Assembly: GCF_013167455.1 (NCBI RefSeq)
Contig: NZ_CP038328.1
Source of the DNA: Escherichia coli O157:H7
GTDB lineage: Bacteria > Pseudomonadota > Gammaproteobacteria > Enterobacterales > Enterobacteriaceae
Reading direction: 5' to 3' (one strand)
Length of the DNA: 64,000 bases
Shown here: positions 4,255-53,561 of the stretch, in pieces
Numbering within the stretch: position 1 is the stretch's first letter
How the letters are laid out: each line of letters opens with the position of its first letter
Notes under the pieces: model-generated
Databases searched by the model: none
Told to the model about the DNA's origin: nothing
What the model saw: the letters and a program-made list of their open reading frames with translations, nothing else
Position numbers and translations under genes: made by a program

Positions 4255-4360
4255 AGCTGCCTGATGCGCTATGCTTATCAGGCCTACATAGTCCCTGCAA
4301 TATATTGAATTAGCAAGGTTTTGTAGGCTGGATAAGGCGTTCACGCCGCATCCGGCAGTA
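4255..4360. repeat. REP (repetitive extragenic palindrome) pair between convergent torZ and cmoB
   Basis: gcctgatgcg...cttatcaggcctac and taggctggataaggcgttcacgccgcatccggca are classic REP sequences. Confidence 0.7.
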
Positions 4361-13425: not shown

Positions 13426-14439
<1,014 letters not shown>

Positions 14440-14440
14440 G

Positions 14441-14675
14441 TCGGATTGGTCGCTCGCACCGCATCCGACATTGGCAGTGTGCCTGATGCGACGCTATTCG
14501 CGTCTTATCAGGCATATACCAGAGATAGCGAACCGTAGGTCGGAAAAGGCGCTCGCGCCGCATCCGACATTGGCAGTGTGCCTGATGCGACGCTGTTCGC
14601 GTCTTACCAGGCCTACCAGAGATAGCGAACCGTAGGTCGGATAAGGCGCTCGCGCCGCATCCGACAAATGTGTTC
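14441..14675. repeat. BIME-like cluster: tandem 98-bp units each carrying REP palindromes
   Basis: catccgacattggcagtgtgcctgatgcgacgct recurs at 14463 and 14561 (period 98 bp), with a partial third copy near 14655. Confidence 0.8.
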
Positions 14676-14684
14676 AGCGATAGA

Positions 14685-15470
14685 TTAGCTGGCCTGCTTT
14701 TTCATCATACTGATAATAAATAACAGTGCCGCACATAGCACCACCGACGGACCCGCCGGCGTATCGTAAAACGCGGAAAAGGTTAAACCGTCAGTTACTG
14801 CCACCATCCCCACCAAAACAGCGACACCAGCCATCTGTTCCGGCGTACGGGCAAAGCGACGCGCAGTAGCTGCAGGAATAATCAGCAACGAAGTAATAAT
14901 CAACGCACCGACAAATTTCATCGCTACACCAATCGTCAATGCCGTCACCAGCATCAACAACAATTTCACTCGCTGTAATTTCACACCATCAACAAACGCC
15001 AGATCCGGGCTAATCGTCATCGACAGCAAATTGCGCCATTGCCAGAACAAAATAGCCACCACGATGACCACGCCAATTGCAATAGAGATGAGATCTTCTG
15101 GCGTCACTGCCAGTAAATCACCGAACAGGTAAGCCATCAAATCAACACGAATGTTAGACATCAGACTAACGACCACCAGGCCCAGCGACAGGGCACTGTG
15201 CGCCATAATCCCTAATAACGTGTCGATCGCCAGCTGTGGACGCTTCTCCAGCCATACCAGACCGCCCGCCAGCAGCAGCGTAACGGCAATCACCGCATAG
15301 AATGGATTCACGTCCAGCAACAAACCAAACGCGACACCAAGTAATGAGGCATGAGCCAGCGTATCACCGAAATAAGACATACGACGCCAGACTACAAACG
15401 AACCCAGCGGACCCGCGGCACAGGCGAGCATGATCCCGGCTAACCAACCGGGAAATAATAATTCAATCAT
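14685..15470 (-). CDS. znuB: Zinc ABC transporter permease ZnuB
   Basis: 261-aa ORF, polytopic membrane protein; 4-nt overlap with znuC. Confidence 0.9.
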
Positions 15471-16222
15471 GAGCGATCATTTCCCCGACGCAAAACAATT
15501 CGTCCCTGTAAATCGTGACGATGATTATGATGATGGCGATAGATACCCAGTTGTTCAGCACCACGAGGACCAAACATTGAAATAAACTCCGGATGCAGGG
15601 AAACAACTTCCGGTGTGCCGGAACAACAAATGTGATGATTCAGGCACAGCACTTCATCGGTTTTTGCCATCACCAGATGAAGATCGTGAGAAACCATTAA
15701 AACGCCACAATCCAGTTCACGACGCAGTTGGTCAATAAGGTCATATAACGCCACCTGGCCATTTACATCCACGCCTTGAGTGGGTTCATCCAGCACTAAT
15801 AATTGCGGGCGATTTAACAATGCTCGCGCTAACAGTACACGCTGCGTTTCGCCACCAGAGAGCTTTTGCATCGGTGCGTTAATCAGGTGCCCGGCCTGGA
15901 CACGTTTCAGTGCAGGCAAAATATCTTCTTTATGTGTACCAGGGCGTAAGCGTAAAAAACGGTTTACGGTCAGTGGCAACGTGGTGTCGAGATACAGCTT
16001 CTGCGGTACATAGCCGATGCGCAGTTTTCCGTTGCGCTTGATAACCCCTTCATCGGGTGTTACCAGCCCGAGCACTACCCGTACCAGTGTCGACTTACCT
16101 GCGCCATTTGGCCCAAGTAAAGTCAAAATTTTTCCAGGTTTAAGTTCCAGCGACACATCAGAGAGGACGCGGCGTTGGCCAAAAGAAACCGAGACATTTT
16201 CCAGGGAAACCAGACTTGTCAT
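15467..16222 (-). CDS. znuC: Zinc ABC transporter ATP-binding protein ZnuC
   Basis: 251-aa ORF; Walker [13 protein letters not shown] signature LSGGETQR. Confidence 0.9.
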
Positions 16223-16246
16223 GTTAATTTTAGTCTTGCAGTAGTC

Positions 16247-16269
16247 ATGAAATGTTATAATATCACACT
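16247..16269. promoter_or_regulatory. Zur operator in the divergent znuCB/znuA promoter
   Basis: Imperfect palindrome gaaatgttataatatcacacttc between the divergent starts. Confidence 0.7.
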
Positions 16270-16300
16270 TCTCATATTCATTACGATGATTGGTCGCATT

Positions 16301-17233
16301 ATGTTACATAAAAAAACGCTTCTTTTCGCAGCATTATTCGCCGCTCTCTGGGGCGGTGCAACACAGGCCGCAGATGCCGCCGTTGTCGCTTCGCTTAAAC
16401 CCGTTGGGTTCATCGCTTCTGCCATTGCTGATGGGGTAACAGAAACGGAGGTTTTACTTCCTGACGGCGCTTCAGAACATGATTATTCACTGCGTCCATC
16501 GGATGTAAAACGCTTACAGAACGCGGACTTAGTCGTTTGGGTTGGCCCGGAGATGGAAGCGTTTATGCAAAAACCGGTAAGCAAATTACCAGAAGCGAAG
16601 CAGGTAACGATTGCGCAGCTTGAAGATGTGAAACCGCTACTGATGAAAAGTATTAACGGCGATGATGATGATCACGACCACGCGGAAAAAAGTGACGAAG
16701 ATCACCATCACGGCGATTTCAACATGCATCTTTGGCTTTCCCCAGAGATAGCGCGGGCTACAGCGGTTGCAATCCATGGAAAATTAGTGGAACTTATGCC
16801 GCAAAGTCGAGCCAAACTTGACGCCAACCTGAAGGATTTTGAGGCACAATTAGCCTCAACCGAAACGCAGGTTGGTAACGAGCTCGCGCCGCTCAAGGGG
16901 AAAGGTTATTTCGTTTTTCACGATGCTTACGGCTATTTCGAAAAACAGTTCGGACTGACACCGCTTGGTCATTTTACCGTTAACCCTGAGATTCAACCTG
17001 GCGCGCAGCGTTTACATGAAATAAGAACACAGTTGGTTGAGCAAAAAGCAACCTGCGTTTTTGCTGAGCCACAGTTCAGGCCAGCGGTCGTTGAGAGCGT
17101 CGCACGAGGGACATCCGTTCGTATGGGAACGTTGGATCCCTTGGGGACGAATATCAAACTGGGTAAAACAAGCTATTCAGAATTCCTGAGTCAATTAGCC
17201 AACCAGTATGCGAGCTGCCTGAAAGGAGATTAA
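16301..17233 (+). CDS. znuA: Zinc ABC transporter periplasmic binding protein ZnuA
   Basis: 310 aa from ATG 16301 ([14 protein letters not shown] signal peptide); His/Asp/Glu-rich loop [19 protein letters not shown]. Confidence 0.9.
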
Positions 17234-17248
17234 TGAGGAAGTGATTAC

Positions 17249-18571
17249 GTGCAACAGATAGCCCGCTCTGTCGCCCTGGCGTTTAATAATTTACCGCGAC
17301 CACACCGCGTTATGTTGGGGTCGCTCACCGTTCTTACTCTGGCCGTCGCTGTCTGGCGGCCCTATGTTTATCACCGCGATGCCACGCCAATTGTCAAAAC
17401 CATTGAGCTGGAACAGAACGAAATTCGTTCGCTCTTACCTGAAGCCAGTGAGCCGATTGATCAAGCTGCACAAGAAGATGAAGCCATTCCCCAGGACGAA
17501 CTGGATGACAAAATCGCCGGTGAAGCGGGCGTGCATGAATATGTTGTTTCCACTGGCGATACGCTAAGCAGCATTCTCAATCAGTATGGTATTGATATGG
17601 GTGATATCACCCAACTGGCTGCGGCCGACAAAGAATTGCGTAACCTGAAAATCGGTCAACAACTCTCCTGGACATTAACCGCGGACGGCGAACTGCAGCG
17701 CCTCACCTGGGAAGTGTCTCGTCGTGAAACCCGAACCTATGACCGTACTGCCGCTAACGGTTTTAAAATGACCAGCGAAATGCAGCAAGGAGAGTGGGTT
17801 AACAATCTGCTGAAAGGTACCGTCGGGGGGAGCTTTGTTGCCAGCGCCAGAAACGCCGGTTTGACCAGCGCCGAAGTGAGCGCAGTGATTAAAGCCATGC
17901 AGTGGCAAATGGATTTCCGCAAACTGAAAAAAGGCGATGAATTTGCGGTATTAATGTCTCGAGAAATGCTTGATGGTAAACGTGAGCAAAGCCAGCTGCT
18001 GGGCGTACGTTTGCGTTCAGAAGGTAAAGATTATTACGCTATCCGCGCTGAAGATGGCAAATTCTACGATCGTAACGGTACTGGTCTGGCGAAAGGATTC
18101 TTGCGATTCCCGACGGCGAAACAGTTCCGTATCTCGTCTAACTTTAACCCGCGTCGTACTAATCCGGTGACCGGTCGCGTTGCACCACACAGAGGTGTTG
18201 ATTTCGCCATGCCGCAGGGTACGCCAGTGCTTTCAGTGGGTGACGGTGAAGTGGTGGTTGCCAAACGCAGTGGCGCAGCAGGTTATTATGTGGCTATTCG
18301 TCATGGTCGCAGCTACACCACGCGTTATATGCACTTGCGCAAGATTCTGGTGAAACCGGGGCAGAAGGTGAAACGTGGCGACCGTATCGCGCTTTCCGGT
18401 AATACCGGACGTTCAACCGGGCCGCATCTGCACTATGAAGTATGGATAAACCAGCAGGCCGTAAACCCGCTGACGGCAAAACTGCCGCGTACCGAAGGGC
18501 TGACCGGCTCCGATCGTCGCGAATTCCTGGCGCAGGCCAAAGAGATTGTGCCGCAGCTACGGTTTGATTAA
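17249..18571 (+). CDS. mepM: Murein DD-endopeptidase MepM (YebA), LysM + M23 peptidase
   Basis: 440 aa, GTG start; M23 motif near the C-terminus (HLHYEVW). Confidence 0.9.
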
Positions 18572-18690: not shown

Positions 18691-19662
18691 ATGGAAACGA
18701 AAAAAAATAATAGCGAATACATTCCTGAGTTTGATAAATCCTTTCGCCACCCGCGCTACTGGGGAGCATGGCTGGGCGTAGCAGCGATGGCGGGTATCGC
18801 TTTAACGCCGCCAAAGTTCCGTGATCCCATTCTGGCACGGCTGGGACGTATTGCCGGACGACTGGGAAAAAGCTCACGCCGTCGTGCGTTAATCAATCTG
18901 TCGCTCTGCTTTCCAGAACGTAGTGAAGCTGAACGCGAAGCGATTGTTGATGAGATGTTTGCCACCGCGCCGCAAGCGATGGCAATGATGGCTGAGTTGG
19001 CAATACGCGGGCCGGAGAAAATTCAGCCGCGCGTTGACTGGCAAGGGCTGGAGATCATCGAAGAGATGCGGCGTAATAACGAGAAAGTTATCTTTCTAGT
19101 GCCGCACGGTTGGGCCGTCGATATTCCTGCCATGCTGATGGCCTCGCAAGGGCAGAAAATGGCAGCGATGTTCCATAATCAGGGCAACCCGGTTTTTGAT
19201 TATGTCTGGAACACGGTGCGTCGTCGCTTTGGCGGTCGTCTGCATGCGAGAAATGACGGTATTAAACCATTCATCCAGTCGGTACGTCAGGGGTACTGGG
19301 GATATTATTTACCCGATCAGGATCATGGCCCAGAGCACAGCGAATTTGTGGATTTCTTTGCCACCTATAAAGCGACGTTGCCCGCGATTGGTCGTTTGAT
19401 GAAAGTGTGCCGTGCGCGCGTTGTACCGCTGTTTCCGATTTATGATGGCAAGACGCATCGTCTGACGATTCAGGTGCGCCCACCGATGGATGATCTGTTA
19501 GAGGCGGATGATCATACGATTGCGCGGCGGATGAATGAAGAAGTCGAGATTTTTGTTGGTCCGCGACCAGAACAATACACCTGGATACTAAAATTGCTGA
19601 AAACTCGCAAACCGGGCGAAATCCAGCCGTATAAGCGCAAAGATCTTTATCCCATCAAATAA
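18691..19662 (+). CDS. lpxM: Lipid A myristoyltransferase LpxM (MsbB)
   Basis: 323-aa ORF. Confidence 0.9.
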
Positions 19663-35592: not shown

Positions 35593-35677
35593 CATTTAAG
35601 CTGATGACCACCGCGCTTTTTATTGACCATTTTGCACGCAAACTGGAAAACCTGGCGTCGTCATCTATTCTTAAAGG

Positions 35678-35780
35678 GCAAGGCAACTAAGCCTGCATTA
35701 ATGCCAACTTTTAGCGCACGGCTCTCTCCCAAGAGCCATTTCCCTGGACCGAATACAGGAATCGTGTTCGGTCTCTTTTT
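35678..35780 (+). ncRNA. sdsR: SdsR (RyeB) sigma-S-dependent sRNA
   Basis: Sequence gcaaggcaactaagcctgcattaatgcc...gaccgaatacaggaatcgtgttcggtctcttttt recognised; sigma-S-like -10 CTATTCT at 35665..35671; terminal hairpin GACCGAA/TTCGGTC plus U-run. Confidence 0.8.
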
Positions 35781-35914
35781 ATCTGTTAAAAGCCAGAAGC
35801 ATTTCCTTCGCTGACTTTATAGTCAACCATAACACACACTCTACTGTCTGAGTCCAGCGTTTTTTAACATTCTTGTTAAGATTATGTGATCTTTAGCGCG
35901 GGAGGAAAATATTG

Positions 35915-50668: not shown

Positions 50669-51293
50669 AATTCATCCTGATTATACGCACTGTCATGGTG
50701 CAACTGCTTCAAATTAAAACTCTGGTCTGACTTCAAATAATTATCATATTATTTATTTGCGTAACGGGATATCAGAAAAAGATATTTACCCCATTAATTT
50801 ATTAGGATGTTTACATCGGATTTGTGATTAAGCGTGGTATTATTTATTAGCGAAACGTTTCTCTCTTGATTTTTTTTGCTTATTCATCAATTTTTCTTAT
50901 TTTAAATTTCCAATTCCTTTGGGATTGACTTCTCTTTGGGGTGATTGAGAGCCGTTAACTGCCTGTTTTATGAGAAAAAGTGATATAACTTTTTATTCAT
51001 TGCATAGCAGAAAATGTGATATTGCACGCACTATGTAATAACTTCTCCCACTGACCTGGAACAACTGAACTTATTGAACTATGTTAGAAACTACGTCAGT
51101 TTAAGTATCTGCGGAACTGACAAGGTTAAGCACAATGATATATCGGCGCGTATTCCGTTGCATAAGTGTGCAAAAAAAGTGGAAGACGTATCGAGATTTG
51201 TGCGTCTGATCGAGACATGTTTAAAAATGGCTTGCCATAATTAACGTTGTATGTGATAACAGATTTCGGGTTAAACGAGGTACAGTTCTGTTT

Positions 51294-51437
51294 ATGTGTG
51301 GCATTTTCAGTAAAGAAGTCCTGAGTAAACACGTTGACGTTGAATACCGCTTCTCTGCCGAGCCTTATATTGGTGCCTCATGCAGTAATGTGTCAGTTTT
51401 ATCTATGTTATGCCTGCGGGCGAAGAAAACAATCTAA
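51294..51437 (+). CDS. yobF: YobF, 47-aa small protein in the cspC leader; below the ORF-track size cutoff
   Basis: ATG 51294 to TAA 51435..51437; translation [47 protein letters not shown]; 12 nt before cspC. Confidence 0.8.
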
Positions 51438-51449
51438 GGAATTTTTCAA

Positions 51450-51659
51450 ATGGCAAAGATTAAAGGTCAGGTTAAGTGGTTCAACGAGTCTAAAGGTTTT
51501 GGCTTCATTACTCCTGCTGATGGCAGCAAAGACGTGTTCGTACACTTCTCCGCTATCCAGGGTAATGGCTTCAAAACTCTGGCTGAAGGTCAGAACGTTG
51601 AGTTCGAAATTCAGGACGGCCAGAAAGGTCCGGCAGCTGTTAACGTAACAGCTATCTGA
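51450..51659 (+). CDS. cspC: Cold-shock-domain protein CspC
   Basis: 69 aa; RNP1 motif KGFGFI. Confidence 0.95.
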
Positions 51660-51703
51660 TCGAATCCACTGATCTGAAGTGTGAATACGCTTCAATCTCG
51701 CTA

Positions 51704-51732
51704 TAAAGCCTCGTCGAATGCGAGGCTTTTTA
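51704..51732 (+). terminator. Rho-independent terminator after cspC
   Basis: aaagcctcgtcgaatgcgaggcttttt. Confidence 0.75.
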
Positions 51733-51824
51733 CTATGCTTTATCTTCGCTCCTGGCGTTCGGATATTTGCCCGCCGCGTGATTCGCGTTACACTTGCGGC
51801 CTTTAGTATCCTGCCGGAGTTGTC

Positions 51825-53197: not shown

Positions 53198-53435
53198 GAC
53201 AACGTCCTGACCGGGGTATCCATAAAACACATCATCGCCCCCAGCAAACATGCATACATGAACAACAAGCCGCGATGGGTTTTCGCGTTCATGCAGGCAT
53301 AGCGATTGATGTGCATATGGTCTCGCCTGACTGAAAGTCTTCAGTCCGTACGTGCCACGTTTTGCAACGAGTATGTTGACACGTACATTTCCGGAATCTG
53401 GAAATTGGCTACTCCCCAAATGAGGGCGCAACCTT
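53198..53435 (-). ncRNA. sraF: yybP-ykoY Mn2+ riboswitch (SraF) in the mntP 5' leader; 5' bound approximate
   Basis: Reverse complement of 53409..53418 reads GGGGAGUAGC, the hallmark yybP-ykoY motif; roughly 240-nt leader ahead of the mntP ATG. Confidence 0.7.
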
Positions 53436-53561
53436 AACATATTTTGAGAATATAAAACAACTGTTGGAATATATTATTTTATTGCTTTGTTGATAACGAT
53501 TTTCATTTAGATTTATATATCAATGAAACGTTATAATAAATAACAAATAAGGGAAGAGGTA

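Follow-up and report, generated by a model that had tools for sequence, protein, structure and literature searches.

The window analysed here, a stretch of 64,000 nucleotides, is part of the chromosome of Escherichia coli O157:H7. An 801-bp query taken around the finding was 100% identical to many O157 genomes, and the same query was found in 5425 of the 5426 complete E. coli genomes. The finding concerns the spacer between the divergent genes znuC and znuA, which are listed in Table 1 together with their neighbors and with the elements discussed below. Here we present a description of this spacer and of the palindrome within it, together with an assessment of what the palindrome does.

The znuC-znuA spacer and its surroundings

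The znuC start codon is the ATG at 16222-16220 and the znuA start codon the ATG at 16301-16303; in an alignment of 76 unique rows from related species (described below) both the columns 16220-16222 and the znuA start are invariant. The preliminary description, made from the letters of the sequence, had placed the two divergent starts 78 nt apart, which is exact, and RefSeq annotation shows an identical 78-nt znuC/znuA gap in O157:H7 and K-12 MG1655. No recognizable Shine-Dalgarno sequence is present at the expected position for either znuC or znuA. The stretch before the znuC ATG (16223-16235, minus strand) reads GACTAAAATTAAC on the znuC strand, and the stretch upstream of the znuA start reads GATTGGTCGCATT, of which only the G at 16293 is invariant. 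A conserved ACGATGA block is located at 16283-16289.

Several other elements were observed in the window. The interval 14434-14666, between ruvB and znuB, holds a REP/BIME-like repeat array with direct repeats of 83 and 53 nt, a spacing of about 98 nt and internal palindromes (GCCTGATGCGACGC); one unit of the array matches Rfam naRNA4 (RF02564, 61.5 bits). The mntP leader (53329-53425, minus strand) matches the manganese (yybP-ykoY) riboswitch aptamer with 40.1 bits, a score below the Rfam gathering score of 45; the match was missed by the default search and found in E-value mode only. Further Rfam matches at 37-344, 35640-35784, 51274-51734 and 4280-4322 include the MicL sRNA (373.7 bits), the overlapping antisense pair SraC/RyeA and SdsR/RyeB, a cspA-type thermoregulator leader (136.9 bits) and ES036/CssrF.

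Table 1. Coordinates of genes and sequence elements at the znuC-znuA locus (positions of the window)
Feature	Position	Strand	Details and basis
ruvB	13429-14439	+	Local gene order
znuB	14685-15470	-	Local gene order
znuC	15467-16222	-	Zinc ABC transporter ATPase; ORF list and RefSeq annotation of an identical O157:H7 genome
znuA	16301-17233	+	Periplasmic zinc-binding protein; ORF list and RefSeq
mepM	17249-18571	+	Local gene order
lpxM	18691-19662	+	Local gene order
Divergent control region	16223-16300	none	78 nt, 31% G+C
Imperfect palindrome, 23 nt	16249-16271		11-1-11 with central A; 9/11 arm positions pair; centre 16260
Two-dimer Zur box, 20 bp	16248-16267		TGAAATGTTATAATATCACA; 0 mismatches to the structure-based motif TGWNAYRWTATAWYRTNWCA
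Zur-protected and crystallized DNA, 31 bp (probable placement)	16242-16272	-	AGAAGTGTGATATTATAACATTTCATGACTA, read on the znuC strand
Dimer site	16249-16261		Centre 16255
Dimer site	16254-16266		Centre 16260
Conserved core	16252-16267		ATGTTATAATATCACA; alignment of 76 unique rows
TTGCAG, candidate znuA -35	16236-16241	+	3/6 versus TTGACA
TGtTATAAT, extended -10, candidate znuA -10	16253-16261	+	-10/extended -10 scan
TAATAT, alternative znuA -10	16258-16263	+	16 nt from TTGCAG
TGaTATTAT, extended -10, candidate znuCB -10	16257-16265	-	-10/extended -10 scan
TGtGATATT, overlapping extended -10	16267-16259	-	znuC strand
5' end of the znuA transcript, -29 from the ATG	16272	+	Mendoza-Vargas 2009, Table S1; 454, one read, weak
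Minor 5' end in the znuC direction, 72 nt upstream of znuC	16294	-	Kim 2012, TSS table; 3 reads

The palindrome, its Zur-box matches and its conservation

The 23-mer gaaatgttataatatcacacttc occurs once in the window. The preliminary description had reported it as an AT-rich imperfect palindrome at 16247-16269; the palindrome does exist, but it lies 2 nt further to the right than was written there (Table 1). Its position in the middle of the spacer, claimed at the same time, is correct, the centre being 1.5 nt off the spacer midpoint. A repeat search reported only an overlapping palindrome of 9 nt, and the 11-1-11 arms were then scored directly. Among 5000 dinucleotide-preserving shuffles of the spacer, 85 (about 1.7%) contained an 11-1-11 palindrome at least equally good, and the palindrome alone is thus only modestly unusual and is weak evidence in an AT-rich spacer. 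It is regarded as more than chance because of its match to the Zur box, its match to a structure-based motif and its conservation across species.

Compared with the published 23-bp gamma-proteobacterial Zur box (GAAATGTTATANTATAACATTTC), the palindrome shows two differences. No second site with three or fewer mismatches to this box is present in the 64 kb, and a scan of 100 shuffles of the window with the same box yielded 0 sites within three mismatches. The 19-bp Zur consensus is matched in the spacer with two mismatches. The structure-based 20-bp motif, TGWNAYRWTATAWYRTNWCA, and the accompanying RNNNYxxxRNNNY rule (PMC4219657) are matched in the spacer by the two-dimer box of Table 1, where the skeleton RNNNYRNNRYNNYRNNNY and the central TATA (16256-16259) are both present, and the next-best matches to the 20-bp motif in the window have at least two mismatches. 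The element is also located between znuC and znuA, at the promoter of zinc-acquisition genes, as a Zur operator should be. The second-best match to the 20-bp motif in the window is TGAAACGTTATAATAAATAA (53524-53543, two mismatches). It lies upstream of mntP, where the sequence is AT-rich, and is probably due to chance or a piece of the site of another regulator.

Conservation was determined in a scan with ZnuA that considered one genome per species and yielded 80 loci with ZnuA identities of 75-98%. The taxa include Escherichia, Salmonella, Citrobacter, Enterobacter, Klebsiella, Kluyvera, Lelliottia, Cedecea, Buttiauxella and others. In all 80 other Enterobacteriaceae species znuC and znuA are divergent and separated by a spacer of 77-79 nt, and the 80 loci were reduced to 76 distinct sequences, which form the rows of the alignment. 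Regarding the 16 columns of the core, 15 are invariant, and the only variation is an A-to-T exchange at 16260 in one species. The corresponding numbers were 10 of 62 columns for the rest of the spacer, 6 of 60 for the third codon positions of the first 60 znuA codons and 1 of 17 for the fourfold-degenerate sites within the same codons. The mean pairwise identity was 0.998 in the core, whereas it was 0.732 in the rest of the spacer. The operator is conserved considerably more than expected for neutral sequence. Among E. coli genomes, its 31 bp were 100% identical in 5191 records and had a match in 5424 of 5426 genomes. The preliminary description had named a lack of conservation in aligned enterobacterial znu loci as the outcome that would speak against it; the core proved to be near-invariant in 80 species. 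Its identification of the palindrome as the Zur site of znuC and znuA is likewise upheld by the motif matches, the identity with K-12 and this conservation.

Operator register and promoter anatomy

The Zur operator of znuA/znuCB in E. coli K-12 is the same element as that described here, with the same gene order, the same 78-nt spacer and an identical 31-bp operator. The spacers of O157 and K-12 differ by one substitution, which is located outside the operator at 16288 (G in O157, T in K-12); 12 further substitutions are found in the flanking coding sequence of znuC and znuA. A functional difference between the two operators is not to be expected, and because the 31-bp operator is the same, experiments on K-12 apply directly. 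The comparison with the footprinted znuA operator that had been suggested as a check was thereby carried out, with the result that the two are equal over the 31 bp. The K-12 znuA/znuCB Zur operator was reportedly studied by Patzer & Hantke (1998/2000) and by Outten & O'Halloran (2001).

The element is already known, down to the crystal structure, and is among the best-characterized metalloregulatory sites. In footprinting on K-12 DNA, Zur protects 31 nt, and the crystal of Zur on the 31-mer contains a dimer of dimers (Gilston et al. 2014, PMC4219657; PDB 4MTD). The same study reports a dimer-to-duplex stoichiometry of 2:1 on the operator, the reading of two purines per R-N-N-N-Y element by each Zur monomer via Arg65 and Tyr45, and eight contacted bases (G7, A11', A12, A15, A16', G19', A20 and G24'). 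Binding was described as cooperative in an all-or-none manner with a Kd-app of 8.2e-18 M^2, was also observed by EMSA and became weaker when contacted central purines were mutated; in vivo, znu was repressed about 6.6-fold (PMC4219657). According to the part of PMC2611976 that summarizes earlier work, the znuA and znuCB promoters are both active in vivo, and run-off assays showed that Zn-Zur blocks the binding of RNA polymerase at znuC and represses its transcription. A partial recognition sequence of ZntR has been proposed to overlap the Zur box, and apo-ZntR speeds up the unbinding of Zur from the 31-bp DNA (PMC11618457). The SoxS-dependent induction of znuACB is regarded as indirect, as gel shifts detected no binding of SoxS to the promoter (PMC12818246).

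The register of the published 31-mer was searched for by considering all placements that satisfy the eight published contact identities. Two mirror-image placements fit all eight contacts, 16242-16272 on the znuC strand and 16248-16278 on the plus strand. The former is probably the published register, and is preferred because the central TATA is present and the 20-bp motif is matched with 0 mismatches. The mirror register on the plus strand was rejected; it has a central TATC instead of TATA and three mismatches to the published motif. With the preferred placement the dyad would fall between 16257 and 16258, left of the 23-mer's centre by 2.5 bp, and the 23-mer covers the central dimer site together with a possible further site on either flank. 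The earlier wording of a single Zur palindrome consequently stands in that there is a single operator, but this operator comprises two overlapping dimer sites, which are occupied cooperatively by two Zur dimers.

The promoters are the less certain part of the region. A scan of 16100-16420 for promoters and terminators found neither; for sigma-70 promoters (TTGACA and TATAAT each with at least 4/6 matches, spacing 16-18 nt) it returned 0 sites because no -35 element reaches 4/6, the best -35 candidates having 3/6. Judged by their sequence, both znu promoters look like the extended -10 type rather than the canonical -35/-10 type. The extended -10 elements found on both strands jointly span 16253-16267, which is the 7-1-7 heart of the palindrome. 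TGtTATAAT is the candidate -10 element of znuA and TGaTATTAT that of znuCB, and the znuC start is predicted near 16248-16253. In the candidate -35 element TTGCAG, there is no variation at T, T, G and A, and 72 of the 76 rows have the C.

Published transcript data refer to both directions. In Table S1 of Mendoza-Vargas 2009, GTTATAAT is assigned as the znuA -10 element ('ext TG: yes') and TTGCAG as the -35 element. The znuA 5' end listed there is located 11 nt beyond TATAAT and fits the alternative element TAATAT better. In the other direction, the entry of Kim 2012 ends with ...CATAATGCGA, the reverse complement of 16294-16303, and thus marks a start upstream of the Zur box and away from the predicted znuC start. 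The promoter for this minor start would fall into the first znuA codons, and its TAACAT -10 element would overlap the znuA start codon (16306-16301). It was measured in a zinc-replete culture (Kim 2012), in which the main promoter controlled by Zur should be repressed. Transcripts from 16294 would need to read through the Zur box. The Cappable-seq supplements (PMC4782308) contain no entry for the znu coordinates or genes. The SELEX paper of Shimada 2014 predicts ATGAAA-17-TCTCAT and ATGAGA-17-TTTCAT, with the palindrome then serving as the spacer of the promoters. We do not take these hexamers to be the main promoters: their sequence is not conserved, and the znuA start that they predict falls downstream of the mapped 5' end by about 10 nt. 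Altogether, the earlier claim that the palindrome can occlude both promoters is well supported, with the exact E. coli hexamers, including those on the znuC side, being the candidate assignments given above.

Function of the operator and comparison with other systems

The palindrome is almost certainly the operator through which Zur controls the bidirectional promoter of znuA and znuCB. As long as the cytosol contains enough free zinc, Zur in its zinc-loaded form binds this single site (about 16242-16272) as two cooperating dimers, which occupy the overlapping RNNNYxxxRNNNY sites of Table 1. The conserved 15-bp centre (16253-16267) presents the extended -10 motifs TGtTATAAT towards znuA and TGaTATTAT towards znuC, and bound Zur would keep RNA polymerase off both promoters simultaneously. 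Because the shared centre would carry -10 elements on both strands, one Zur site would suffice to shut both promoters. Upon zinc depletion Zur would be released and both operons would be transcribed. Nothing contradicts the binding of Zur itself; the weak points lie in the anatomy of the promoters.

Conservation of the palindrome merely as two overlapping divergent -10 elements, with the binding of a repressor being incidental, is very improbable. Such an origin of the conservation would agree with the coincidence of the invariant 15-bp centre with TGtTATAAT on the plus strand and TGaTATTAT/TGtGATATT on the minus strand, as well as with the poor conservation of 16249, the Zur contact furthest out, where 8 of the 76 rows have a G and 27 a purine. 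However, footprint, EMSA and crystal structure show Zur on this exact sequence, and mutations of the central purines weaken its binding. Moreover, -10 elements normally tolerate substitutions, yet 15 of the 16 core columns never vary across 80 species, which argues for a constraint in addition to that of the -10 elements; the two roles, -10 element and Zur-binding site, are complementary, not exclusive. Binding by a different regulator, i.e., a Fur (iron) box or a generic site of the Fur family instead of a Zur-specific one, can hardly be considered credible. Zur and Fur boxes are alike in being AT-rich inverted repeats of similar sequence (PMC2706843), but within the spacer extended by 10 nt in both directions, the best match to the 19-bp Fur consensus (GATAATGATAATCATTATC) has mismatches at 7 of 19 positions and is located off the palindrome, and the central TATA contacted by Tyr45 is, according to PMC4219657, specific to Zur and missing from the Fur box.

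The palindrome might also be part of a coding sequence, if ZnuA were N-terminally extended and began at the ATG at 16247 (328 aa) or at the ATG at 16286, which would leave a spacer of 24 or 63 nt. Both ATGs are in frame with znuA with no intervening stop codon, and the majority bases at 16286-16288 are A, T and G (in 76, 71 and 60 of the 76 rows). Against this, only Escherichia has the ATG at 16247 (8 of the 76 rows carry a G at 16249), and the mapped znuA 5' end, 16272, is downstream of it. K-12 has ATT at 16286-16288 as its sole spacer difference from O157, and RefSeq starts the proteins of both O157 and K-12 at 16301. The 310-aa form of ZnuA already opens with a signal-peptide-like N-terminus (MLHKK followed by a hydrophobic stretch and AxA), and an extended protein is accordingly very improbable too, slightly more so than conservation due to the -10 elements only. 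The least probable explanation, to the point of being negligible, is that of a chance AT-rich palindrome or of an RNA hairpin in the 5' leader. The frequency of about 1.7% among shuffles of the AT-rich spacer is in favor of chance, which is refuted by a conservation far above neutral. Regarding the hairpin, the segment 16240-16300 folds at -4.3 kcal/mol (z = +1.5), 186 of 200 shuffles being at least as good, and most of the box is located upstream of the mapped znuA 5' end.

The Zur operator as described may vary in detail between genera. In the published register for E. coli, the second Zur dimer would be on the side proximal to znuC, with the G at 16249 as its outer-left contact. Most genera have a G at 16250 instead, one position inward. 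At the corresponding outer-right position on the mirror side, 16271, 66 of the 76 rows have a C and 70 a pyrimidine. According to the RNNNY rule it may be speculated that many operators outside Escherichia fit a combination of the centre and the right site better than one of the left site and the centre; the 20-bp motif does not clearly separate these registers, as most sequences have 2-3 mismatches in either. In most Enterobacteriaceae the second dimer might therefore perhaps bind on the opposite flank, displaced from the central dimer by 5 bp. A core frozen by three jobs, as the central Zur dimer site and as two extended -10 elements, in combination with a genus-dependent position of the second dimer, is a tentative proposal that we consider rather unlikely. 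If it were true, a flipped second dimer could bias the repression towards znuA or znuCB. Two observations may be mildly new, namely that the outer Zur contact of E. coli is not conserved outside Escherichia, and that the stretch which does not vary between species is also where extended -10 motifs of the two directions overlap.

The znu operator controls high-affinity zinc uptake, a system relevant for virulence, and nothing in it differs in the O157:H7 window. A textbook metalloregulatory operator was thus correctly recognized from the raw sequence alone.

A close counterpart is found in Yersinia pestis, in which znuA and znuCB are also divergent with a short spacer (73 bp) and Zur represses both (PMC2706843). 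There, primer extension and footprinting showed that the Zur site overlaps the mapped -10 elements of both promoters (PMC2706843). However, Y. pestis has two separate DNase I footprints, with the Zur box in site 1 only, whereas a single protected region of 31 bp was reported for E. coli. Within E. coli, the Zur boxes of zinT, ykgM/L31p and pliG have the 20-bp motif and the two-dimer skeleton RNNNYxxxRNNNY in common with the znu operator (PMC4219657). The latter is among the weaker Zur binders, its Kd-app indicating binding about 150-330 times weaker than that of zinT and L31p (PMC4219657). Among the four E. coli Zur operators, a bidirectional promoter is described for znu alone (PMC11618457, PMC2611976). 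The Fur box GATAATGATAATCATTATC is also an AT-rich inverted repeat, to which a single Fur-family dimer binds or a pair of dimers on opposite DNA faces, but its best match here has seven mismatches, and it does not contain the central TATA that is read by Tyr45 of Zur.
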